Source of the DNA: a virus
Reading direction: 5' to 3' (one strand)
IMG/VR virus record: IMGVR_UViG_3300045988_051354
Location: 35,058-99,057 of that record
Length of the DNA: 64,000 nucleotides
A program made the translations under genes and the position numbers. The notes beneath the pieces were generated by a model. It did not search any database, was not told the origin of the DNA, and was given only the letters and a program-made list of their open reading frames with translations. This document shows, one piece after another, positions 385-60,987 of this stretch. The stretch's first letter is position 1. Each line of letters begins with the position of its first letter.

Positions 385-1188
385 CTATACCCGTCTGGTT
401 AGACGCAAAGATATAACAGGCGATTGTTCACCATCGAGATACTTGATATAATCTTTACCATGTAGTTTAAATTTATCAAGTATAGTCAAGGAAGTATCTT
501 CTACAGCATAAAAGTAACTATTGTAGCAATCTCTTGGTACAAAGTAACCTGCCTTCCTGTCCCACATAGCATGTTTAACTCCCAGGTTCTCCGCTGGGAC
601 GAACTCACAGTTAAACATCAACTCCTTAGTTCTAGCTTTACGATTTTCATCGCTAATAGTTTTAAGGATAGATTGCATAAATTCTCTGTAAGTAGGGTTA
701 TCATTAACTGGAATTCCTAAGAACTCAGCAGCTTCGATAACTCCATTAACACCTACAGTTAAATACTGTTTCTTCATATGAATGAATCCAGCAGAATAGA
801 CAGTTAGTAAACCATCATTTAAATAGTCTTTGAGTAATTCATTATATGCAGTTTGATATTTATGAACTTTCTGAACGTTTTCACGTAAATACTCAATCAT
901 ATCGTATCCGTTATTAACTGCATCTTGAACTAATCTATTAATATTTAAAGTCATTACAGATTTACTACCAGTAGCAATACCACCAGCTCCAAGAGAATAA
1001 CTAAATTGATTATCAGTTACTTCATTGCGAAGTCTACAACAACTTGACAGACTATCTGCTGAATCAGACATATAAGTAAAGAATGAGTGTCCCTTACTAT
1101 ACATCTCTGCTGTAAAGTCTGCCCATTCTTTATCTACTACATCCTCTCCATCAGTAAGAAGTGCTACAGTTTCCCACATATGTTCCAT
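385..1188 (-). CDS. nrdD: Anaerobic ribonucleoside-triphosphate reductase NrdD, internal exon (catalytic core with CC-R-L-R cysteine motif)
   Basis: The LSSCCRLRNE motif is typical of the class III RNR active site. The ORF ends ...LTRRV at a TAG-TAA double stop, exactly where the glycyl-radical motif RVCGY would continue. The last exon must therefore lie beyond the window. Exon borders are approximate. Confidence 0.7.
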   Translation of the reverse strand: MEHMWETVALLTDGEDVVDKEWADFTAEMYSKGHSFFTYMSDSADSLSSCCRLRNEVTDNQFSYSLGAGGIATGSKSVMTLNINRLVQDAVNNGYDMIEYLRENVQKVHKYQTAYNELLKDYLNDGLLTVYSAGFIHMKKQYLTVGVNGVIEAAEFLGIPVNDNPTYREFMQSILKTISDENRKARTKELMFNCEFVPAENLGVKHAMWDRKAGYFVPRDCYNSYFYAVEDTSLTILDKFKLHGKDYIKYLDGEQSPVISLRLTRRV

Positions 1189-1297
1189 ATAGTTCGCTAC
1201 ACTATATGCGTTCTCTTATGAACTGCTGTATGTCACCATACAGGTCAGACTATATCACAATCCTATTAGGATTCTCCCCATTTCCACTGTCAATAGC

Positions 1298-1873
1298 TTA
1301 CAGTGTACTCTCTTTCGAGATAGTCGTTGAACTTTCATTACAGAACTCAAATGTATATCCATGATACAACCTATTAGCATTGATAGCTTTATGTAACCCT
1401 TCCACACAAGATGGCTTACCTATAAGGCGTACTGCTTCACTCATAGATTTATATATAGTATCATTCTCTATACATCTGACTGCCTTTGGAGCAGTCTTCC
1501 CCTTCATAGACTTACCAAGTACATCTACAGAGTGTCTTTCATTCTCTGACTGTGTGCACCATTCTAGGTTCTCTACACAGTTATTAGAACGATTGCCATC
1601 TATATGATTAACGTAAGGTTTGTTGTCAGGATTTGGTATGTACGTCTCAGCTACAAGCCTATGACACATATATCTTTTCTTAACACCTTCTTTCATTAAC
1701 ACAATCCTACTGTAACCATCTTGCATAACCTCTACTTTAAGTGATTTGCCAGGATAATTACGAGTTCCAGATTGCTTATACTTGATAATTCTATCTTTAC
1801 TTCTAAAGTTACCTAAAGTACTTACTTCAAAGTACCCTTCATAGTTAGGGATTTCTTTCCAAATTTCTTCCAT
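1298..1873 (-). CDS. HNH homing endonuclease (NUMOD4-like N-terminus) inside the nrdD intervening sequence
   Basis: EIWKEIPNYEGYFEVSTLGNFRS is a NUMOD4-like motif. HIDGNRSNNCVENLEWCTQSEN is an HNH motif. The gene sits between two nrdD coding blocks. Confidence 0.8.
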   Translation of the reverse strand: MEEIWKEIPNYEGYFEVSTLGNFRSKDRIIKYKQSGTRNYPGKSLKVEVMQDGYSRIVLMKEGVKKRYMCHRLVAETYIPNPDNKPYVNHIDGNRSNNCVENLEWCTQSENERHSVDVLGKSMKGKTAPKAVRCIENDTIYKSMSEAVRLIGKPSCVEGLHKAINANRLYHGYTFEFCNESSTTISKESTL

Positions 1874-2014
1874 AATGCTTAGCTGCTGATTGTCTTAATA
1901 CTAATTATTAAGTGCAAAGATAATGTAATTTACTTACATTTCCTAACTTTCTACCATTAATTAATGTTAAGATGTCCCAGCAATTAGAGGAGTTGTTCGA
2001 GATAGATTACTCTA

Positions 2015-3064
2015 TCAAGCTGCGAAATTCACAGGGAACGTTAATATGCACTTAGTCCTCTCCTCGTTAAACCAAGTCATAAACTTCTTCTGTAACCAGT
2101 TCAAAGAATCCCATATGGGCTTAGTTCCATCTGGGAATACAAACTCACCAAATAAACCTTCAAAGTAATTCTTATCAAAATAACTGATATTCCAGAATAC
2201 TGATTGGAAGTTACGAGCAGCTGCTGGTTGATTGATTGAATATACAATCTGTTGGAACTTCTGTTCAATAGTCTTATCAATATTTCTATGTTTATCAACC
2301 ATCTCTTCTGGACGTTTCCAATAATCATCACCCCATTCTTTACGAGCGAAGTAATCGAAATACATTAGGAACTCACCAGTAGCTACTGCTCCAGCGAATT
2401 GTGAGCTGATAGCAAATACCAGATTAACAAACATACCGCAGAAGGAGTCCAGATTCTTAGGCTTGGCAGACAAACCTCCAATTGGCTGTAGCCCTTCAAG
2501 TAGGAACGGATACATAGTGATAGCCACGCAGTAGGGCATAATTGATGTTTCATCATGCTTGTAAAGTTCATGAGATTCCAGTTGTCTAATATACTCCTTA
2601 GCTAAATCTTCACCATATAACTGCCTAATTTTATCTGTAAGGATTGCTCTATTAACTTTAATTACATCACCCTTAAACAACTCTCCATTTAAAGTTACTA
2701 TATTCTTCTCAGTAACATTGGCATTAGCATCATATTTACTACCTGTAGCAGCATTAGATGCTTTGGCATAATCTTTAATAAACTGCTTCTTCCCAGCTAA
2801 TGCTCTGAGTTCAGCTTGTTTATGTCGATACAAAATGAATGCTTTAGCGACATCATAGTAATCACAAGCCATCAAAGCCTTTTCAATTTGATCTTGAAGC
2901 TCTTCTACTGATACTATGTTGTTAATATACAATTCATCTTTAATATCATCCAAAATATCGGAATCAATTGGTTCGTTAACAGCATTGAACGCCTTAGTAA
3001 TAGCCGCGTCAATCTTATTAATATCGAAAGGTTCTACTCTCTTATTTCTTTTAATTACTAACAT
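2015..3064 (-). CDS. nrdD: Anaerobic ribonucleotide reductase NrdD, N-terminal exon (ATP-cone + start of catalytic domain)
   Basis: MLVIKRNKRVEPFDINKIDAAI is ATP-cone-like. It ends ...KCILTFPVNFAA at a TGA and is then interrupted by 826 bp containing the HNH ORF. Confidence 0.7.
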   Translation of the reverse strand: MLVIKRNKRVEPFDINKIDAAITKAFNAVNEPIDSDILDDIKDELYINNIVSVEELQDQIEKALMACDYYDVAKAFILYRHKQAELRALAGKKQFIKDYAKASNAATGSKYDANANVTEKNIVTLNGELFKGDVIKVNRAILTDKIRQLYGEDLAKEYIRQLESHELYKHDETSIMPYCVAITMYPFLLEGLQPIGGLSAKPKNLDSFCGMFVNLVFAISSQFAGAVATGEFLMYFDYFARKEWGDDYWKRPEEMVDKHRNIDKTIEQKFQQIVYSINQPAAARNFQSVFWNISYFDKNYFEGLFGEFVFPDGTKPIWDSLNWLQKKFMTWFNEERTKCILTFPVNFAA

Positions 3065-3069
3065 TCAAT

Positions 3070-3849
3070 TTAGAAGTTTAATATGTTTCTTAGTAATAGA
3101 GTCTTCTCTGCTCTATTCATCAAATCTTTGCCCTTGTCATTACTAATTAACTGAGTAAATGCATTATACACAGTAAACATATCCACCTCATTACCCTCTC
3201 CTATATAATAGCTAGAATCAGGGTCTTCAAACATAGAACCATAAGCCTTAACAACAAGGTCTGTTCCTATCTTTACGTCTCCATACCCACCATTATAGGT
3301 CATAGATATAGCGTTTCTAACCCATCTACCTAGATTAGAGTCTATATTACTTGGAGTTCCTTCCCATGTAGTATTATGTAAGGTGTCCAACATCAATTTA
3401 ATATCACTGGTTTGTGATAAAAGGTGTTCAACAGCTTTATAATTGATGGGCTTCTCAGACTCTAAGTTCTGAACTTGCAAGAACTCTGGGTCAAAGACAC
3501 ATAAGTTTGTACATGCTCTATTAAGAGCGCCTCTATAAATCTTAGCTACTGGTTTACGGACATCTAATCCATATACCATACCAATAACTTCATCGTGATT
3601 ATCTATTCTGCAATTCTCTGGCATTACAGCTTGAATAAGTACACGATTATAAGTGATATCATCTGCATTAACCTCTCCATCTGCTGTTCTAGTAACTTGC
3701 TTAGGGAGTTCTGCTTCCACTATAAAGTTACTAGTAAACTTATACATTCTTTCTAGAAAGGGTTCTACATAAGCAGCCGTAGGGAAGTAATTACGCTTCC
3801 CTATTCTGGTTGCTTTACCATTTAACAGTTGATCAATCGTCAGTTGCAT
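3070..3849 (-). CDS. hypothetical protein
   Basis: 259-aa ORF. Starts right after the nrdD exon. Fits the minus-strand gene array. Confidence 0.55.
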   Translation of the reverse strand: MQLTIDQLLNGKATRIGKRNYFPTAAYVEPFLERMYKFTSNFIVEAELPKQVTRTADGEVNADDITYNRVLIQAVMPENCRIDNHDEVIGMVYGLDVRKPVAKIYRGALNRACTNLCVFDPEFLQVQNLESEKPINYKAVEHLLSQTSDIKLMLDTLHNTTWEGTPSNIDSNLGRWVRNAISMTYNGGYGDVKIGTDLVVKAYGSMFEDPDSSYYIGEGNEVDMFTVYNAFTQLISNDKGKDLMNRAEKTLLLRNILNF

Positions 3850-4502
3850 TATACACAGTACAATATCGGCTTTGGTAATTCTAGTAATCTAGCAGCATAA
3901 TATACAGCTCTTAATGGATTTGCACCATTACCGTCAATAGGCATAGTGTTAGAACTAAAATAACCAACACCATACCTTTTGGCAATATTGTACAACCTCA
4001 CTAATAACTCAGTAGATTGGCCCTTTGTTGGATCAATTTCATTTGACAAGAGCTGATTTAGCAAATACTTCAGAGCTTCTCTGCAAGTAGCTCTGGTATC
4101 ATCACCATTAAATGTATGATTGTCTATCATAATTGTTCGCACAGTAACTCCACAAAATGCCTTCTCAGCATACTTTACCTCACCATTCTCCATTTCAATA
4201 GGAGTTCCTATTAATCCCTGCACAGGATGAACAGGCTTCTCTACATCTCTATCATTAATGGTTATCTTACCGGAATTTAGTTGCTTTGAGGCTTTAGAAA
4301 TCATACTATCTTTAACAATAGTAGGAAGATCATCTATGTTAGTTTGGCCAGTTACTCTGAATCCAACAGCTGGTAAATTACTCATAAGATTATCCTCTGC
4401 TCGTCGAAAGTCTAGTTTACTTTGTTCTAACGCCTTAAAAGCATTTACATAGTCATCACAATTAGCTCTAAGAGCTATTACATCATCAATAGTTAAAGTC
4501 AT
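3849..4502 (-). CDS. hypothetical protein
   Basis: 217-aa ORF. Its ATG overlaps the stop of the next gene. Confidence 0.55.
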   Translation of the reverse strand: MTLTIDDVIALRANCDDYVNAFKALEQSKLDFRRAEDNLMSNLPAVGFRVTGQTNIDDLPTIVKDSMISKASKQLNSGKITINDRDVEKPVHPVQGLIGTPIEMENGEVKYAEKAFCGVTVRTIMIDNHTFNGDDTRATCREALKYLLNQLLSNEIDPTKGQSTELLVRLYNIAKRYGVGYFSSNTMPIDGNGANPLRAVYYAARLLELPKPILYCV

Positions 4503-23290: not shown

Positions 23291-23640
23291 TTACATACTA
23301 ATAGATCCGGTATGTTTACCTCTTACTTTAACAGAGTTAGCAGTAATATCTCCCTCTACATCACCACCTACTTCGATGCTGTTAGCTTCTATACTACCTC
23401 CTACATTACCTTTAACTTTGACACTATTACCATGTACAGTAAGAGCGTTTCCATCAATGTCACATGTGTTACAGTTAAGCTCCTTTACATTACCAGTAAA
23501 ACTGATATGTACACTATCATTATTGACTTCGGATATTAATTTACCATTCACATAAATTCTATTCTTTATTTGTGACATGGTAATATCATCTTCATCAATA
23601 TCAAACGATTCATTGTCAATAAACAGTTTATTCATGATTC
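23291..23640 (-). CDS. Bactofilin-like repeat protein (probable start at internal Met, MNKLFIDNES...)
   Basis: C-terminal repeats GNSVKVKGNVGGSIEANSIEVGGDVEGDITANSVKV resemble the bactofilin (DUF583) beta-helix. The tracked ORF 23291..23758 is probably over-extended at its 5' end. Confidence 0.4.
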
Positions 23641-23936
23641 TTCTTATCCAGTTCATAATACTTAATAAGTTTATCAAATGCTTTAACTCTAGCATTATGT
23701 CCTTCCTCACTATCAGGGGTCCACCAATAAGCTTTACCATACCTATCTTTAGGAGCATTTAGAAACTTCCTGTTAAATTCTGGAATCATGGTAATTATAT
23801 CACGTTGGCTATAAATAGTGATTCCACGTTCGGTTCCTGCCATAGCGTGTTCTATACAGAAACACATTCCCCAGTATTCAGGGTGGGTTACAAATAATTC
23901 TTTAGCTTTTTTAAGAACACTTACAACATCTGTCAT
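23628..23936 (-). CDS. hypothetical protein
   Basis: 102 aa. Confidence 0.45.
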   Translation of the reverse strand: MTDVVSVLKKAKELFVTHPEYWGMCFCIEHAMAGTERGITIYSQRDIITMIPEFNRKFLNAPKDRYGKAYWWTPDSEEGHNARVKAFDKLIKYYELDKKNHE

Positions 23937-29552: not shown

Positions 29553-29837
29553 TTACAATATTTTAGTCACTTTGCCAAACACGGATTTAGTCCATCCATT
29601 AATCTTACCATGATTGTTGCCTATAAGGACTCCTCTATCTCCCTTAGCTTTGACTAAGTGAGTATAGTATCTACCTTTGACTTTACAAAAGACAATATCT
29701 CCCACTTCTACTTTATCTAGGGTTACTGGACTTAAGACATGCTTTTGTCCCGATTTGATTAGAGGAGTCATGGAATTTCCCTTCTCTGAAGTTACGAAGG
29801 AGTTTCCTTCTGCCAACATCTTTACCTTGTATAGCAT
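29553..29837 (-). CDS. S24/S26-like peptidase-domain small protein (LexA/UmuD/signal-peptidase fold)
   Basis: GNSMTPLI resembles GDSMxP. A VGDIV...G..V..K..GDRGVLIGNNHG beta-barrel pattern follows. Weak. Confidence 0.35.
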   Translation of the reverse strand: MLYKVKMLAEGNSFVTSEKGNSMTPLIKSGQKHVLSPVTLDKVEVGDIVFCKVKGRYYTHLVKAKGDRGVLIGNNHGKINGWTKSVFGKVTKIL

Positions 29838-30686: not shown

Positions 30687-30956
30687 TCATTTCCTTAATA
30701 CTTTCTTTGCATATTCACCATAGGAACCATGTCTCTTCATAAACGGAGTTAGAAACCTATAATCGAATTTATAATCACATACATCATAATCGTTCACAAT
30801 CTCCCTACTAGAAGAAATCTCATAGTCTAGGATATCTTTAAGTGTTAGAATATCTCTAGTCTGTTGCCTTTGGTGTCTCTTAACCCTTCGGTTATACCAA
30901 TTGCGTTTAACTTTAGGTCCTTTAACAATAGGAATTTTACGTCTACTTCTAGTCAT
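30687..30956 (-). CDS. hypothetical basic protein
   Basis: 89 aa, Arg/Lys-rich. Confidence 0.45.
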   Translation of the reverse strand: MTRSRRKIPIVKGPKVKRNWYNRRVKRHQRQQTRDILTLKDILDYEISSSREIVNDYDVCDYKFDYRFLTPFMKRHGSYGEYAKKVLRK

Positions 30957-31350
30957 TTAATACATAATCACAATAAGTATCAACAAAATCTTTGGCTTCT
31001 TTCAAACCACATTTGGCAGATTCTTTTACATGCTTAACTGTTTGTAGTTTGGTACCCCTCTGCACAAGCTGCTTCATCTTAAAAAAGTCTTCACATGACA
31101 AATCAATTGTATTATTCCAACGCTTCTTGTATGCAAGCATTGCATCATTATACTCTTGAGGATGTTCTGTCCAAGTGATTTGCTGGTCCAGGATAACTGT
31201 ACAAGTTCCATCAAGTATATCATACTCTCTGGATTCTACAGTAAATTTGCCAGCTTCTAGCACCACTGTGTCTGTAGGGAATGGAATCATCTCTGATGAG
31301 ATTGATACTTCCTCTATTGTCTTATCGTCTTTTACAAACTTTACGTACAT
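30949..31350 (-). CDS. Protein with ribosomal bL12 (L7/L12) C-terminal-domain-like region
   Basis: C-terminus KLQTVKHVKESAKCGLKEAKDFVD matches the bL12 CTD signature K..VIK.VR..TGLGLKEAKDLVE. Confidence 0.45.
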   Translation of the reverse strand: MYVKFVKDDKTIEEVSISSEMIPFPTDTVVLEAGKFTVESREYDILDGTCTVILDQQITWTEHPQEYNDAMLAYKKRWNNTIDLSCEDFFKMKQLVQRGTKLQTVKHVKESAKCGLKEAKDFVDTYCDYVLND

Positions 31351-31375
31351 AATCTTTAAGTATTAATTAGTAATG

Positions 31376-31449
31376 TGGCGAGAAGGTGACTCGAACACCC
31401 AACCTTGATATTATGAGTATCACGCTCTAACCAGTTGAGCTATCTCGCC
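31376..31449 (-). tRNA. tRNA-Met(CAU) (first of three CAU tRNAs)
   Basis: GGCGAGATAGCTCAACTGGTTAGAGCGTGATACTCATAATATCAAGGTTGGGTGTTCGAGTCACCTTCTCGCCA, a clean cloverleaf. Confidence 0.8.
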
Positions 31450-34814: not shown

Positions 34815-35080
34815 TACTTGTTAGGTTTATTAATCTTATTTACTTCCTTAATAATTGCCTCGCAATTCTCTCTGGTTGTAGTTAAACAACCTAATTGAAT
34901 GATTGAACCATCTTGAGTGACGGTAAGATTCTTATCATCAATTGTGGTTCTACATTCACTTCCCCTAATAATACTTTTAATCAATGGGTAGGGTAATGCA
35001 GTATTCTTACAGAATATTACATTCTTGCCTTCCACATAAATGACATCGTAGCCGTCAATGCTACCTACTACCTTCCTCAT
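34814..35080 (-). CDS. hypothetical protein
   Basis: 88 aa. Confidence 0.4.
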   Translation of the reverse strand: MRKVVGSIDGYDVIYVEGKNVIFCKNTALPYPLIKSIIRGSECRTTIDDKNLTVTQDGSIIQLGCLTTTRENCEAIIKEVNKINKPNK

Positions 35081-35346: not shown

Positions 35347-36393
35347 CTATGACTCCCTTACATACTCTTCATAAATATACAGTTCAAAGTTAGGTCTTAT
35401 AAACATATCTTTGTCTGTAGCTTCGTCCCAATGAGTAACTATAACCTTCTTGCGAACGTTATGGCTAAACATAGAATCAATATTGAGACTATGCCTAAAC
35501 AAAACTGGATCAAACTCTATAGCCCGGAAAGATTTCTGAAAGTCGTTAAATTGGTTGTTGGGGTCTACAACAGATCTAACTGGCTTATCAGAAGGAAACG
35601 GACCGTTACCATGACGCGTTATGTATGGTCTAGTAACGTAATTAACCGTAACGGTGTCATTACATCCAATTTGTTTTAGTATTCGATGAGCATTCTGTGA
35701 TGTTGTATTAGATGGAGTGCAATGGGGCATTATTCCGAATCTTTGGTCTAGTAATATACCTTGGGAACCTTCAAAGATAAGATTGTCGTAATCTTCCCAT
35801 ATAGCTTCTAAGGTACTTACTTGGACAGTGTTGAAATATGCATTCACAGTTCTGCACCAATTATCCAAGTCAATTGATGGATATACACTATTCATGTGAT
35901 AATAGTTGTCTGCTATTGCATTAACTTTCTCCCTAAGAATATGTATATTCAAGCAATCTATAACCATAAGATTATACCCCGACTTCACTCGGTCTAAACA
36001 CGTTTTAAAACCAGTCCCTACAGTACCATGACGTAGATTTACTACGTCACTTACTTGGGAATAGACGTCGAATGGTACTATGACTTGACATAATGGATTA
36101 TAAATAATTTTAGGAGTAATACCTAATTTCTTTAAATCCATTGCTTCAAGTGTAGAGGTTACTGGGTCTACAGTACAGTATTCAGACCAATATGTAGGCA
36201 CTCCTAGCAAGGTTCCACTTCCAAAGTTACTAAATGTGTGCATAAGGTCTCCGTATTTAACAGTATGGCCAACTTGATGTCCACCACTAAACCTTATTAC
36301 AAGTGAGTTCTCTGGATTCTTAGCACATATATTATGTACCGTCTGTCCCTTACCTTCATCGCCCATAAATGAGCCTAACACTATACTAATCAT
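35347..36393 (-). CDS. purA: Adenylosuccinate synthetase (PurA)-like
   Basis: The PurA N-terminal GDEGKG P-loop is present, followed by RFSGGHQVGHTV (compare GGxNAGHT). Start placed at the internal Met (MISIVLGSFMGDEGKG) because the tracked ORF's 5' extension overlaps the vWA gene. Confidence 0.6.
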   Translation of the reverse strand: MISIVLGSFMGDEGKGQTVHNICAKNPENSLVIRFSGGHQVGHTVKYGDLMHTFSNFGSGTLLGVPTYWSEYCTVDPVTSTLEAMDLKKLGITPKIIYNPLCQVIVPFDVYSQVSDVVNLRHGTVGTGFKTCLDRVKSGYNLMVIDCLNIHILREKVNAIADNYYHMNSVYPSIDLDNWCRTVNAYFNTVQVSTLEAIWEDYDNLIFEGSQGILLDQRFGIMPHCTPSNTTSQNAHRILKQIGCNDTVTVNYVTRPYITRHGNGPFPSDKPVRSVVDPNNQFNDFQKSFRAIEFDPVLFRHSLNIDSMFSHNVRKKVIVTHWDEATDKDMFIRPNFELYIYEEYVRES

Positions 36394-36397
36394 GATT

Positions 36398-37318
36398 TTA
36401 ATAGAAATTTTGTTTGTCTTCGGTAGTTGTACTACTAGAAGCATCACTAGGAGTTTCTGCATACACAGGCTCCTCGTAATTGTCTTTAATTGCTTTAGCA
36501 ATTACTTTATCCACTTCATCAGATTTGCACATTAGTACATTCTGTCCAAGTAGATTCTTCCAAGATTCAGCCACCCTTGTGCCATAACTGGCATTAGTAA
36601 TGTGAATGTGGAATACATGGTACTGCTCTTGTGCTTTCAGAATTGCTTCATTAGCACTAATAGAACCAGCACCTTTTTGATACCCTAGAATTTCAGTCAA
36701 ACTGTTACCTGGGATTCCTTGTAGATTAGGTTCATCACCAATAGTAAACAAGAATCCTTTAGTGTGTCTTTTGAACCAAGAATCGGTTTCAGTGTGATAT
36801 CCTGCAACTATGTGAGCTAATAAATAGCTCTCACCTGCATTACCACCACCTCCACCTTCTATTACTAAGGACTCTAATGAATTTAGAATCTTCTCAGTAT
36901 CAGATTCAAACTGTCCAACCTGAATAGGATATCTATCGTATTCGTGGTCTCCAACTGCCATAAACAACAATTGAGGATCACGTACTCCCATTTGCATGAC
37001 AGAATCCATAATCTTAGGTAAATGGTTCTTAATCATTTCATAAGGAGTATTCATCATTGAACCAGTAACATCCAGTGCAATGATTATCGGAGTAGAGTAT
37101 GGATGTTCTTGGGAGTCACGACACTCACGAACTCCAACATTGACCATTTCAGCTTTAACTTGAGTATTAAAGCTACGTGCATTTACATTAAATGACGCTG
37201 CTGTATTACTAGCATTTACTGAAATGTTCTTAAAGAGCTGGTCACGCGATGCTTTAGCATATCCTCTATCATCGGATAAAGTGCTATAAGCAATACTACT
37301 GTAAACACCACTTCCCAT
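36398..37318 (-). CDS. von Willebrand factor type A (vWA) domain protein
   Basis: MIDAS motif IIIALDVTGSM (DxSxS), then downstream T and D residues. Ser/Thr-rich C-terminus. Confidence 0.6.
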   Translation of the reverse strand: MGSGVYSSIAYSTLSDDRGYAKASRDQLFKNISVNASNTAASFNVNARSFNTQVKAEMVNVGVRECRDSQEHPYSTPIIIALDVTGSMMNTPYEMIKNHLPKIMDSVMQMGVRDPQLLFMAVGDHEYDRYPIQVGQFESDTEKILNSLESLVIEGGGGGNAGESYLLAHIVAGYHTETDSWFKRHTKGFLFTIGDEPNLQGIPGNSLTEILGYQKGAGSISANEAILKAQEQYHVFHIHITNASYGTRVAESWKNLLGQNVLMCKSDEVDKVIAKAIKDNYEEPVYAETPSDASSSTTTEDKQNFY

Positions 37319-40558: not shown

Positions 40559-42547
40559 TTACTTCACAGCTTCAAAGTTGTCTTCGGTTGGATTATCCTT
40601 TTTATCCTCGACAAACATTTCTTTAAATGTCTTCTTAAAAGGAATACTCTTAAGAAGTTCAAATGCTGGGTTGAGATTCTCAGCTGTTTTAGCCATGAAA
40701 CTACCAGCAGTATTTTCATTACCATAAACAGTCACTTGTCCAAGATGGATATGTTCATACATCTCTGCGGATGCTTCAGCAATACCTTTAAGCTGATCCA
40801 CTGTCTTGTATTGAACAATCATTTGTGGAGTCATACCACATTCAATCATCTTCTCTACTGCCTTTGCAGGAGCCATTTCAACAGCAGTAATCTTGTCTGC
40901 TTCTGCCATCAAAGATGCTCTCTTACCTTCAGCCTCTGCAAGCAACTTTCTCTTAGTACCTTCAGCTTCAGCTTCAAGTTGCATCTGAGTTGCATTTGCC
41001 TTAGCTTCTGCCTCCTTAAGAATTTCAGCAGCTTTAGCTTCTGCCTTAAGAATAGCTTCTTGCTTTACAGCTTCAGCATCAATAATGGCTTTCTCCTTAG
41101 CTTTATTAGCAGGCACAATTACCGTTGCATTTAATTCAGCTTCTTTAGCTTTGGCTTCAGCTTCTTTAATTTCTGCAATCTTCTCTTGCTCGGTTCTAGC
41201 AATAGTAGTTTCTGCATCCACTTTAGAAATACCTGCAACCTTATCGGCATCAGCAGCAGCCTTTGCAGCTTCTCCTTTAGCCTTAGACACTTCAATTGTA
41301 GCCATATGCTCGGCTACTCCAGCCTGCTTATTAGCTTCAGCTGTCTTCTTACGAGCTTCAGACTCATATTCAGCAGTCCTAGCCTCCTTCTCTTGAACAG
41401 CTTTAATTGTCTCAGCCTCCTGATTCTGTTGAGCAGCAGCAATACGAATTTGCTTAGCTGATTCAGCTTCTTGTTCTTTAGCAGCTGCTTCCGCTTTAGA
41501 TTTAGCCATATTAGCTTTAGCTTGTGCATCCCATTCAGTCTGTTGAGAAATTGCAATAGACTCCTGCTCTGCTACCTTAGAAAGCTTCTCAGCGTTAGCT
41601 TTAGCTACTCCTACTTCCTGCTCTTTCTGTTGATCTGCAATAGCAATACGTTGTTCCTTCTGCTGCTCTGACAGTTTAACTTCCTGCTCCTTAGTAGTTT
41701 CGGCTAATCTAATTGCTTTATCCTTATTAGTTTCAGCAATAGTAGTCTCTTGGTCCTTAAGAGTAATAGCAATGGCTACTTTCTGGTCTCTAGTCGTTTC
41801 AGCTACTTTAGTCTCCCTTTCCTTAGTAGTAAGGGCAATTTGAATTGCTCCTTTCTTCTCTTCTTCAGCAATAGCAGCTTCTGCCTGTGCTCTAGCCTTA
41901 GTAGTTTCTTTCTGACCTAGATTCTCAATATAATTAGCAGCATCTCTGATGTCACTAATATTGATATTAATCAGATACAAACCCAATTTGTTTAATTCAG
42001 TGTTAATATTGTCTCTGGCTTGAGTTAAGAACTTATCTCTGTTAGAATTAAGTTCCTCAATTTCCATAGAAGCTACAATAAGCCTCATTTGGCCATATAC
42101 GATGTCTGAAATTAAACTCTCTTTATCTGTATCATCAACTCCAAGTAATCTATTAGCAGCATTCTGCATAATTAATGGGTCTTGGCTGATTGCTACAGTG
42201 ACTGTAGTAGGAACAGTAACACGAATATTCTGGGCTGATAATGCATCCTTGAGAGTTAAATTCAACTGAATAGGACGCATTGACATTACTTCATATCCCT
42301 GAATGATAGGCCATACAAATGCAGCTCCACCGTGATACACTCTAGCAGTTTTAATTTCTACTTCCCTGCTGACTTGGTTCCCTTTGGCATCAAGTTCATT
42401 TACCTTCTCTTTGTGAGAACCAGTTTTACCATAAACTACTAATAGTTCATCAGATTTACATTTACGATAACGAGATAAAATCCCAATGATAGTAATAATT
42501 GCTATTAATACAATTACTCCTACGATAATTAATGTTGTCATTTCCAT
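40559..42547 (-). CDS. Flotillin-like SPFH/band-7 protein
   Basis: N-terminal TM helix, then an SPFH core (ARVYHGGAAFVWPIIQGYEVMSMRPIQLNL...IRVTVPTTVTVAI). A flotillin-like Ala/Glu-rich coiled-coil region of about 350 aa follows. Confidence 0.7.
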   Translation of the reverse strand: MEMTTLIIVGVIVLIAIITIIGILSRYRKCKSDELLVVYGKTGSHKEKVNELDAKGNQVSREVEIKTARVYHGGAAFVWPIIQGYEVMSMRPIQLNLTLKDALSAQNIRVTVPTTVTVAISQDPLIMQNAANRLLGVDDTDKESLISDIVYGQMRLIVASMEIEELNSNRDKFLTQARDNINTELNKLGLYLININISDIRDAANYIENLGQKETTKARAQAEAAIAEEEKKGAIQIALTTKERETKVAETTRDQKVAIAITLKDQETTIAETNKDKAIRLAETTKEQEVKLSEQQKEQRIAIADQQKEQEVGVAKANAEKLSKVAEQESIAISQQTEWDAQAKANMAKSKAEAAAKEQEAESAKQIRIAAAQQNQEAETIKAVQEKEARTAEYESEARKKTAEANKQAGVAEHMATIEVSKAKGEAAKAAADADKVAGISKVDAETTIARTEQEKIAEIKEAEAKAKEAELNATVIVPANKAKEKAIIDAEAVKQEAILKAEAKAAEILKEAEAKANATQMQLEAEAEGTKRKLLAEAEGKRASLMAEADKITAVEMAPAKAVEKMIECGMTPQMIVQYKTVDQLKGIAEASAEMYEHIHLGQVTVYGNENTAGSFMAKTAENLNPAFELLKSIPFKKTFKEMFVEDKKDNPTEDNFEAVK

Positions 42548-44748: not shown

Positions 44749-44765
44749 CTAGGAGTCGAACCTAA
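44749..44765 (-). other. T-arm-like hairpin TTAGG-TTCGACT-CCTAG, 8 nt upstream of the tRNA-Arg(UCU) 3' half (shared insertion-end motif)
   Basis: See 40022..40038. Overlaps the stop codon of the HNH ORF. Confidence 0.5.
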
Positions 44766-45370
44766 TTCTTATTGTTATTAATTTCATTTTTATGGTAACG
44801 GTAATAGGAACGTTCTCCACACTTGTTCTTAGACTTATAAGTATCAAGCTGTGAATCACAGTTAGGACATATGCATCGTAAATTATCTCTACGATTGTTA
44901 GATGCATGTCCGTCTATATGGTCAATGATAAAGACCAGCTCTTTACCATTCCAGATAGGCTTCATACCACATATAGCACATACTCCACCTTGCTCTTTTA
45001 GAATATCTTTCTTGAAGGCCTTAGGAGAGTAGTTAGCTCTCATTATACTTTCATCACCGTCCAAAAGCTTCTTGTAAGCAAGCATATGAGCATGTTCAAA
45101 TTGACATTTAGGACCACAGTACTTGCCATAACTTCCGTTATAACTAATAAGTTCTGCACCACAGTTTAAACAGTATTTGTACTTCCTATTGAATGTTTCT
45201 TTAGGATTAATTTTACGTTTAATTGGTAACTCTATGCCAAGTCTACGCGCTACATTCTTAATATTAGCACCTGAACAACCATATCTTCTTCCTATTTCCT
45301 CATAACTGAGCTTATCTATCAAAATTAAATGCTCAAGTTGAGCTTTCTCGTTAATCCATTTACTTGTCAT
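44762..45370 (-). CDS. HNH homing endonuclease with N-terminal HTH, inside the insertion that splits tRNA-Arg(UCU)
   Basis: HTH LSYEEIGRRYGCSGANIKNVARRLGI. HNH motif VCAICG...FIIDHIDGHASNNRRDNLRCICPNCDSQ. Confidence 0.75.
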   Translation of the reverse strand: MTSKWINEKAQLEHLILIDKLSYEEIGRRYGCSGANIKNVARRLGIELPIKRKINPKETFNRKYKYCLNCGAELISYNGSYGKYCGPKCQFEHAHMLAYKKLLDGDESIMRANYSPKAFKKDILKEQGGVCAICGMKPIWNGKELVFIIDHIDGHASNNRRDNLRCICPNCDSQLDTYKSKNKCGERSYYRYHKNEINNNKN

Positions 45371-48822: not shown

Positions 48823-49473
48823 CTATTGTGCATACTCCCATCTATATCCGTATGCTGTCTTAGTCTTGTGCTTAGCTGCATTAGAGATATGGCTTCTAAC
48901 ACCTCCGTTATATGTCTTAGCATAACCATTATCAACACACCAATGTGCTGCGTCAGCCACGCTATTAAACACTTGCACAAGTATATCTTCGTTGTACTGT
49001 TCTATCTTTACTGGAGGTTTACAGGAGCCACAATGTGACTCGCTATTACTGTGGGATCTCTTGATATCCTTCACTACTTTGGACACTGTATCTGGATGAC
49101 ATCCTACTATTTTAGCAGTCTCTTTCATCGAATGTCTAGCAGCGTAGAGCTCACGAATTTCATCATAGTTCCAAATAATAGAACCATCTCCACCGGTAGT
49201 GGCATTATAACCATTACCATAGGTTTTAAATTCATTTATCCAGTAAGTTTCTCTTCCGCTAGATTCCTTTGACGAGCACTCTTCTAGCATTTCTATGCTA
49301 AATGAATCAATTCCATATTTATTCATGGCTCTATACAAAGGTCTATCTTTGCATCTCTCCTTCTTATAATCTCTACAGTGTTCTTTCCATCTCTTACTAA
49401 CGGACGAAGTAGTTTTACCTATATACTTCTTTCCATTTACATGGTTAGTTATGCAGTAAATATAAGACATCAA
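48823..49473 (-). CDS. GIY-YIG homing endonuclease (I-TevI/Seg-like)
   Basis: YIYCITNHVNGKKYIGKT (GIY and YIG), conserved R/E/N, and a C-terminal DNA-binding region. Flanked by a 15-nt direct repeat of a tRNA 3' end. Confidence 0.8.
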   Translation of the reverse strand: MMSYIYCITNHVNGKKYIGKTTSSVSKRWKEHCRDYKKERCKDRPLYRAMNKYGIDSFSIEMLEECSSKESSGRETYWINEFKTYGNGYNATTGGDGSIIWNYDEIRELYAARHSMKETAKIVGCHPDTVSKVVKDIKRSHSNSESHCGSCKPPVKIEQYNEDILVQVFNSVADAAHWCVDNGYAKTYNGGVRSHISNAAKHKTKTAYGYRWEYAQ

Positions 49474-49612: not shown

Positions 49613-49615
49613 AAG

Positions 49616-49687
49616 TGCTCCATACAGGATTCAAACCTGTGACACGTAGGTTTAGGGTCTACTGTTCTATCGCTGAACTAATGGAGC
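49616..49687 (-). tRNA. candidate suppressor tRNA, anticodon CUA (reads UAG), with C33 and an A31-C39 mismatch
   Basis: GCTCCAT-TA-GTTC-AGCGATA-GAAC-A-GTAGA-CCCTAAA-CCTAC-GTGTC-ACAGG-TTTGAAT-CCTGT-ATGGAGC-A. The acceptor, D-arm and T-arm are perfect. The anticodon triplet CUA sits at 34-36 of a 7-nt loop. Confidence 0.5.
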
Positions 49688-60912: not shown

Positions 60913-60987
60913 GTGAACCAGAGTAGATTCGAACTACTAACCTTTCTCTAGATGAGAATGTTCTTCCGGAAATTGAACTACTGGTTC
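60913..60987 (-). tRNA. tRNA-like element with non-canonical anticodon arm
   Basis: GAACCAG-TA-GTTC-[11-nt loop]-GAAC-A-TTCTC-ATCTA-GAGAA-AGGTT-AGTAG-TTCGAAT-CTACT-CTGGTTC-A. The acceptor, D-arm and T-arm are perfect. The anticodon arm is 5 bp with a 5-nt loop, or 4 bp with a 7-nt loop CATCTAG. Confidence 0.4.

Follow-up and report, generated by a model that had tools for sequence, protein, structure and literature searches.

A 133-aa protein encoded in the phage DNA analyzed here is an accessory protein with a widespread L12-like module, and not a phage-encoded ribosomal protein. [quoted passage not shown] Throughout, "the window" denotes the whole stretch of DNA that was analyzed, 64,000 nucleotides from positions 35,058 to 99,057 of IMG/VR record IMGVR_UViG_3300045988_051354. 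The features discussed below are listed in Table 1.

Table 1. Positions in the window of the 133-aa gene, the parts of its product, and two neighboring features
Feature	Position	Strand	Details
133-aa ORF	30949..31350	-	ATG start, TAG stop, complete; acidic product, pI 4.9
N-terminal β domain	31171..31350	-	Residues 1-60; predicted strands 2-7, 10-16, 28-31, 34-44, 49-58; pLDDT ~84-92
Connecting region	31096..31170	-	Residues 61-85; predicted helix 65-78; most variable part among orthologues
C-terminal three-helix "short L12-like" module	30958..31095	-	Residues 86-131; predicted helices 86-97, 101-112, 116-131; AF2 pLDDT 88-96
Core homologous to bL12 CTD helices 4-5	30973..31053	-	Residues 100-126, ~E. 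coli bL12 64-90
tRNA-Met(CAT)	31375..31449	-	24 nt upstream of the 133-aa gene, same strand
89-aa ORF	30687..30956	-	ATG overlaps the stop of the 133-aa ORF (ATGACTAG)

The gene and its phage

The ORF was found as the first-pass annotation had described it, a complete minus-strand frame of 133 codons between an ATG and a TAG, and all long ORFs of the window lie on this same strand. The window holds 25 tRNAs, two of them with a CTA anticodon, and recoding of TAG was examined and set aside for this gene. A second TAG stands two codons past the stop, and read-through would add only one codon before it. Elsewhere in the window, TAG-terminated ORFs mostly have another stop close behind, and recoding barely lengthens them. 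Since the gain from read-through is small across the window, we kept the standard code for the 133-aa ORF.

The order 267-aa gene, tRNA-Met, 133-aa gene, tRNA-Leu(TAA) is conserved, the exceptions being one relative's locus with an HNH endonuclease gene at the position of tRNA-Met and losses of the 89-aa ORF. Synteny of tRNA-Met with the 133-aa gene is kept in orthologous loci down to 53% identity and is missing in relative L002. The 89-aa ORF has a very basic N-terminus, yielded no family match, and looks translationally coupled to the 133-aa gene. It was considered as an obligatory partner of the acidic 133-aa protein and ruled out, as it is missing in locus L031 and, going by a reduced distance to the downstream tRNA, probably in L027 as well. 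Searches of the neighboring genes against Pfam, PHROG, and PADLOC gave no match pointing to a function, and the neighbors in the phages are orphan genes.

Other genes of the window encode DnaB, a superfamily-2 helicase, a Toprim protein, RNase H, an AAA ATPase, adenylosuccinate synthetase, and an SPFH protein. In addition, nrdD is split by a NUMOD4/HNH gene, and further HNH and GIY-YIG endonucleases are present. Among named phages, the DnaB is closest to those of crAss-like phages, at ~29-32% identity. [quoted passage not shown] The gene belongs to an abundant human-gut phage of ~180 kb, and we infer that this phage resembles the Zeta crAss-like phages, with TerL lying outside the window.

The first-pass annotation had taken the position of the gene next to a large tRNA set as a sign that its product manipulates translation. 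This argument proved weak: replication genes, homing endonucleases, and orphan genes lie between the 25 tRNAs, which are spread through ~40 kb, and the synteny with tRNA-Met is absent in at least one relative. A role for the 133-aa protein in the manipulation of translation is thus put forward here as a hypothesis.

Conservation of the protein family

Relatives of the 133-aa protein formed 437 clusters at 90% identity in a collection of 5.8 billion proteins. The best 120 of the 437 were 88-98% identical to it and 131-145 aa long, and came from contigs of up to ~175-185 kb in many human-gut datasets. In IMG/VR, we located 26 loci with tblastn identities from 53% to 98%, the lowest being L031 on a 185-kb contig. 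A more distant homologue, 36% identical (P0148), came from a single Logan contig, and a search with this homologue as query yielded only one extra protein. No match was found by tblastn in 50,697 GenBank phage records, and no relatives were found in 185,579 representative bacterial and archaeal genomes.

Pairwise dN/dS values for six orthologues (Nei-Gojobori) were 0.05-0.24, and the 133-aa ORF is a real conserved gene under purifying selection. Conservation is uneven along the protein. Between L031 and the 133-aa protein, residues 101-131 are ~80% identical, against 42% for the N-terminal domain, and the module is the most strongly constrained part.

Similarity to the bL12 CTD

The first-pass annotation had read the C-terminal 25 residues as a match to the bL12 CTD. 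The peptide itself is present, but as the 24 residues 101-124 (KLQTVKHVKESAKCGLKEAKDFVD) with nine more residues behind it, so that it is not the extreme C-terminus. As for the match, what stood was homology to the factor-contacting helices 4 and 5 of bL12, seen both with PF00542 and by hhalign, and what fell away was the rest of the domain. The profile match on which the reading had been staked was significant: PF00542 (Ribosomal_L12) was the sole Pfam match of the protein, at E 2.8e-5 and 24.8 bits, which is 1.1 bits under the gathering score of 25.9 bits. It spans residues 100-126, equivalent to profile positions 11-37 of 67, and this region takes in helix 4, the turn, and helix 5, which make up under half of the CTD. 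About half of the best 120 close homologues carry a precomputed match to the same profile.

Profile-profile comparison placed the segment in the same way. An hhalign alignment of the family against complete bL12 CTD units had a probability of 97.1% and a pairwise E of 5.6e-11, and covered 30 columns, pairing residues 97-126 with CTD positions 10-39 of 69. Over E. coli bL12 residues 64-88, 11 of 25 positions are identical in the 133-aa protein, including the equivalents of K70, G79, L80, K81, E82, A83, K84, D85, and V87. When the window was translated in all six frames, the motif G[LIVM][KR][ED][AVS]K turned up a single time. Single-sequence and full-length comparisons gave less. With phmmer against the PDB, Thermotoga maritima L7/L12 (1dd3) was matched at E 0.77, which is weak alone, and nothing in the PDB fell below E 0.6; the NCBIfam L12 model TIGR00855 was matched at E 7e-3 and 16.7 bits, with a cut-off of 84.4, over model positions 68-96 of 125 only.

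In the aligned core, K106, L116, E118, and G115 of the phage protein fall on E. coli bL12 K70, L80, E82, and G79, and the equivalents of V66, A67, and V68 are L, Q, and T. The 2007 study by Helgstrand reportedly describes K70, L80, and E82 as strictly conserved contact residues, with V66, A67, V68, and G79 highly conserved. Within the phage family, including its 31-35%-identical members, L116, E118, A119, and K120 are invariant and K106 is nearly so.

The Pfam score below its gathering threshold and the phmmer E of 0.77 could be read as signs of a chance match in a spurious ORF. The probability of this is negligible in our view, and the HMMER matches, dN/dS, and hhalign rule it out: profile-profile probabilities reach 97-99%, hundreds of significant matches all run through the same segment, and purifying selection acts on the ORF, which is conserved across hundreds of contigs. 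Judged by sequence, residues 100-126 are related to bL12 CTD helices 4 and 5, and the similarity goes beyond chance.

Predicted structure

Structure prediction, which the first-pass annotation had proposed as a check, was run with AlphaFold2 on the family alignment and gave a confident model (mean pLDDT 89.1). The model shows a three-helix module plus a β domain, however, and not the α/β fold of the bL12 CTD. The residues that precede the bL12-like core are predicted to be helical, whereas bL12 has strand β1 at that place, and nothing after the core is able to form β2-α6-β3. Residues 1-60 are predicted as a small, possibly SH3-like barrel; this domain obtained no family assignment and has no known relatives. 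For the 36%-identical homologue P0148, the predicted topology was the same (pLDDT 85.2). Fold searches with the 133-aa protein returned no significant match pointing to any function.

The helix 4-turn-helix 5 element of bL12 has long been noted as resembling a helix-turn-helix (HTH), and a paper by Rice & Steitz on the HTH in L7/L12 appears by title in reference lists. The 133-aa protein, with its predicted three helices, a Gly-containing turn between the last two, and a gene in the early gene region, could accordingly be a tri-helical HTH regulator that binds DNA and controls early phage genes. We consider this improbable, because the protein is acidic (pI 4.9) and its third module helix carries four acidic and only two basic residues.

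A further reading is that the phage encodes a bL12 that replaces or joins the host protein in the ribosomal stalk. It draws on the existence of the Ribosomal_L12 match and on reports of viral bL12-domain proteins, one of which was found in ribosome fractions (PMC6375957). In bL12, an N-terminal two-helix domain (residues 1-37) dimerizes and binds helix 8 of uL10, a hinge follows (38-49), and the CTD (50-120) comprises three helices and three strands; contact with the ribosome is made solely through the N-terminal domain and uL10 (PMC3299993). The phage protein differs at each of these levels. In place of the two-helix domain that dimerizes and binds uL10, it has five predicted β strands within residues 1-58, as does P0148. 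There is no flexible hinge, residues 61-85 being predicted to be ordered. Its C-terminal part is predicted to be all-helical rather than α/β, with β1, β2, helix 6, and β3 of the CTD missing, and helices 4 and 5, which in bL12 pack on the β sheet and helix 6, pack here on a different helix. The protein also scores under both curated bL12 cut-offs (PF00542 and TIGR00855), and the latter model is matched over fewer than 30 of its positions.

Because the uL10-binding part is missing, the phage protein could not assemble into the stalk as bL12 does, and bL12 has no other anchor on the ribosome. We therefore regard a stalk bL12 as very improbable, and the description of the protein as a ribosomal-protein homologue, in the sense of one able to sit in the stalk, did not hold: the N-terminal domain, the hinge, and over half of the CTD are missing, and what is left is all-helical. 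A partial, sub-threshold Ribosomal_L12 match of this kind marks a two-helix module and should not be counted as a ribosomal protein in surveys of viral translation genes.

A family of short L12-like modules

Searching 1.84 billion cluster representatives exhaustively with HMMER, we obtained 417 matches at E<=1e-3. Beyond fragments and the protein's own family, these were almost all proteins of 100-400 aa with two to six stretches that match query residues ~90-125. Mapped on the E. coli CTD, the stretches cover positions ~10-40 only, and complete CTD copies were present in only 5 among the 150 proteins listed (P0157, P0205, P0232, P0250, and P0253). Relatives P0139, P0141, and P0146 have a hydrophobic N-terminal segment and then repeats spaced by Pro/Ala-rich linkers, with the repeat consensus ..LLxxGxKIEAIKRVREATGLGLKEAKDYVEAL. 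The module as a whole has the consensus LLxxGxKIxAIKxVRExTGxGLKEAKDxV in a unit of ~35-45 residues, in which the preceding helix ends in LLxxG. Going by the examples read, bacterial tandem arrays of 2-6 copies apparently often have Pro/Ala-rich linkers and stand behind a hydrophobic N-terminal segment.

We compared the 133-aa protein with these short modules directly. An HMM of 242 short-module units scored the 133-aa protein at 45.6 bits over residues 91-126 and E. coli bL12 at 40.2 bits over residues 64-93 only. In hhalign, the family aligned with the units at a probability of 98.9% (E 1.2e-17; 43 columns, residues 85-127), a comparison that is somewhat circular, as the 242 units were collected as matches of the same query, and whose informative part is that the alignment reaches the preceding helix. 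This helix is present in the short-module proteins and in the 133-aa protein and is lacking in bL12. By these profile comparisons, the segment of the 133-aa protein fits the short L12-like modules better than it fits bL12. The conserved positions of the core, among them the equivalents of K106, L116, and E118, are 80-90% conserved across the 242 units. The short-module proteins are mostly bacterial and carry 2-6 copies (in the examples read), whereas the 133-aa protein has one copy behind a β domain.

The closest relatives beyond the protein's own family number in the hundreds and bear one to six copies of the module. Database entries for such proteins carry the label "ribosomal protein L7/L12" (in JGI, and at NCBI for QSW21420.1 of Clostridium gasigenes), which is a mislabelling. 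Existing models capture the module in part. Pfam DUF6793 (PF20593) overlaps it and is matched by 75 of the 113 representative relatives scanned, and the 133-aa protein had no match to this model at E<=10. Its best NCBIfam match was PRK06771/NF005269, "hypothetical protein", at E 1.4e-3 and 19.3 bits over residues 91-125, far under the cut-off of 90 bits. A literature search on DUF6793, PF20593, and PRK06771 found no paper, and we found no known function among the short-module proteins.

Single copies of the module recur in phages. In IMG/VR, loci L032, L033, and L036 encode proteins of 103, 149, and 119 aa with unrelated N-termini and one C-terminal module each; in L037, the module is internal to a 265-aa protein, and in L034 a protein of just 61 aa has a nearly complete CTD. 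The 133-aa protein is also matched, through the module segment only, by five PHROG families of unknown function, and an uncultured myovirus is represented in BFVD by a 144-aa "L7/L12 C-terminal domain-containing protein" with 33% identity over 66 columns. Overall, the partners of the module include apparent membrane anchors, a terpene synthase, MerR, and unrelated phage N-terminal domains, as well as TIR, where the cases examined had complete CTDs. The gene neighborhoods of three bacterial proteins with the module or a complete CTD revealed no link to translation and no recurring theme. The module is a mobile unit carried by many unrelated proteins.

Candidate functions

The best explanation that we can offer is that the segment is a portable docking module bearing the GTPase-binding surface of bL12, with the phage protein as an adaptor or a competitor of the stalk. 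We hold this to be plausible, if somewhat short of probable. The module would keep the surface by which bL12 contacts the translational GTPases EF-Tu, EF-G, IF2, and RF3. Through it, the phage protein would dock on a translation factor of the host, or on some other partner that this surface has in bL12, and the β domain might supply a second, phage-specific contact or a means of oligomerization. Within an early, replication-phase program, the role of the protein would be that of an adaptor or of a ribosomal-stalk competitor.

We favor the docking explanation because K106, L116, E118, and G115 are kept and the same positions are conserved in the short-module units. The module is also portable in phages, and the strongest selection falls on it. 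Other observations tell against docking. The conservation of the motif could reflect the folding needs of a helix-turn-helix hairpin alone, the bacterial contexts are non-translational, the phage neighbors are orphans, and the equivalents of V66, A67, and V68 are changed. Because the hairpin packs on a different helix, the exposed surface may differ from that of bL12. The isolated bL12 CTD is said, again in the work of Helgstrand in 2007, to bind factors weakly, in the millimolar range; a single copy would for this reason be a poor decoy unless the protein oligomerizes. The bL12 CTD holds the interaction sites for IF2, EF-Tu, EF-G, and RF3 (PMC3299993; PMC12548414), and both papers list among their references Kothe 2004, on "helix D of EF-Tu with helices 4 and 5 of L7/12", as well as Helgstrand 2007.

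The main alternative, quite possible though we would not call it likely, is that the module is a generic small helical domain for interaction or stability, descended from bL12 helices 4 and 5 or from a shared ancestor, and without a role in translation. The protein would then have some other partner in the host or the phage, and its activity would lie in the β domain. Such a reading fits the joining of the module to very different partners, the bacterial gene contexts unrelated to translation, the lack of literature on DUF6793 or PRK06771, and the uninformative fold searches. Two circumstantial points weigh against it: conservation in the module is highest at those charged and hydrophobic residues that bL12 keeps strictly, and the tandem arrays, with their flexible linkers, are reminiscent of the stalk and its multiple copies.

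A bolder form of the docking explanation, which we think rather unlikely, is that the short L12-like module is a free-standing docking unit for translational GTPases, or "stalk mimic". Were this so, the 133-aa protein, other phage proteins with the module at the C-terminus, and hundreds of bacterial tandem-repeat proteins would make up an unrecognized extraribosomal class that tethers or sequesters EF-Tu, EF-G, or IF2. The 133-aa protein would couple a host translation factor to a phage-specific partner of its β domain, beside 25 tRNAs that include amber-suppressor tRNAs. Should binding to translational GTPases prove real, the module would offer very abundant human-gut phages and many bacteria a compact, portable handle on the translation apparatus, and the many proteins mislabelled as L7/L12 would gain a function.

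Comparison with known phage bL12-domain proteins

The first-pass annotation had pointed to reports of ribosomal-protein homologues, bL12 among them, in large phages, and bL12 domains have indeed been described in phage proteins (PMC6375957). Mizuno et al. (2019) described phage proteins that carry bL12 domains inside unrelated polypeptides, and argued for repeated acquisition (PMC6375957). The bL12-domain protein of FSL SP-076 was found in ribosome fractions by co-sedimentation and mass spectrometry, and tagged ribosomes could not be purified (PMC6375957). Their examples come from phages under 80 kb that infect Proteobacteria, with HHpred probabilities of 96-99.9% (PMC6375957). These appear to hold a roughly complete CTD, as the coverage given in the Table 1 of that paper, if it is a fraction of protein length, corresponds to ~65 residues (PMC6375957).

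Like those proteins, the 133-aa protein has a bL12-derived segment in an unrelated phage polypeptide, a significant Ribosomal_L12 match, and evidence of purifying selection. Neither its family nor its genomic context is related to theirs, which is consistent with repeated independent acquisition. Unlike them, it holds only ~27-30 CTD residues, and its phage is ~180 kb in size and crAss-like in look. Phage bL12-domain proteins and models of the short module (DUF6793 and PRK06771) were thus already known, and what the 133-aa protein presents is the two-helix core of bL12 in a different structural context.

Sequence variation in the 133-aa protein and its relatives

The orthologue at IMG/VR locus L024 (3001-3399, against 30952-31350 of the window) is identical in DNA over codons 1-60, and dS exceeds 1 across the rest of the gene. 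This change along the gene points to a recombination breakpoint where the N-terminal beta domain meets the helical half. A second IMG/VR orthologue, at L025 (3001-3393), has 93% identity by tblastn over query residues 1-131 and carries a stop in frame after codon 55. This stop could stem from misassembly, mark the copy as a pseudogene, or be a codon that is recoded.

The 133-aa protein has two cysteines, C114 and C127, spaced 13 residues apart within the pattern CGLKEAKDFVxxYC. The same pattern occurs in the unrelated 149-aa viral protein at L033 and is not found in P0148, a homologue with 36% identity. Two metagenomic proteins, P0157 (382 aa, at 2868-4016 of locus L040) and P0205 (686 aa), contain complete bL12 C-terminal domains, three or four copies of which follow an N-terminal TIR domain. 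Among the neighboring genes are ones for a Ser/Thr kinase and a TPR protein. P0157 and P0205 may be defense-type proteins, with the factor-binding domain of bL12 used as a sensor or bait.

Genomic context

Directly downstream of the 133-aa gene lies an 89-aa ORF with an extremely basic N-terminus (MTRSRRKIPIVKGPKVKRNWYNRRVKRHQRQQTR) and no Pfam, PHROG, or PADLOC matches. It is kept in close relatives, missing from relative L031 and, judged by spacing, probably also from L027. The window additionally encodes unusual phage cargo, namely a bactofilin-like protein, an SPFH/Band-7 protein, adenylosuccinate synthetase, and a short S24 peptidase-like protein.

Coordinates of features in the window
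Feature	Position	Strand	Remark
nrdD piece	385-1188	-	NRDD profile positions 223-462
NUMOD4 + HNH homing-endonuclease ORF	1298-1873	-	between both nrdD pieces
nrdD piece	2015-3064	-	ATP-cone + NRDD profile positions 6-170
Bactofilin-like protein	23291-23758	-	
S24 peptidase-like protein	29553-29837	-	short
89-aa ORF	30687-30956	-	start overlaps stop of 133-aa gene
Adenylosuccinate synthetase	35347-36501	-	
SPFH/Band-7 protein	40559-42547	-	662 aa
Homing-type endonuclease ORFs (one HNH/EndoVII-like, one GIY-YIG + HTH)	44762-45370, 48823-49473	-	
tRNA, CTA anticodon (amber suppressor)	49615-49687	-	ARAGORN label Pyl
tRNA, CTA anticodon (amber suppressor)	60913-60987	-	ARAGORN label Pyl

Homing-type endonucleases and tRNA genes

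The gene for anaerobic ribonucleotide reductase, nrdD, comes in two pieces (385-3064, minus strand), apparently split by the insertion of an intron or a homing endonuclease. More homing-type endonucleases are interspersed with the tRNA genes of the window, and in relative L002 a 193-aa HNH ORF (3359-3940) occupies the position of tRNA-Met in the other loci, immediately upstream of the 133-aa gene.

CTA-anticodon tRNAs account for 2 of the 25 tRNAs in the window. As TAG still acts as a stop within these 64 kb, any amber recoding would affect genes beyond the window, probably the late genes. Amber recoding of this kind is on record for Zeta crAss-like phages.
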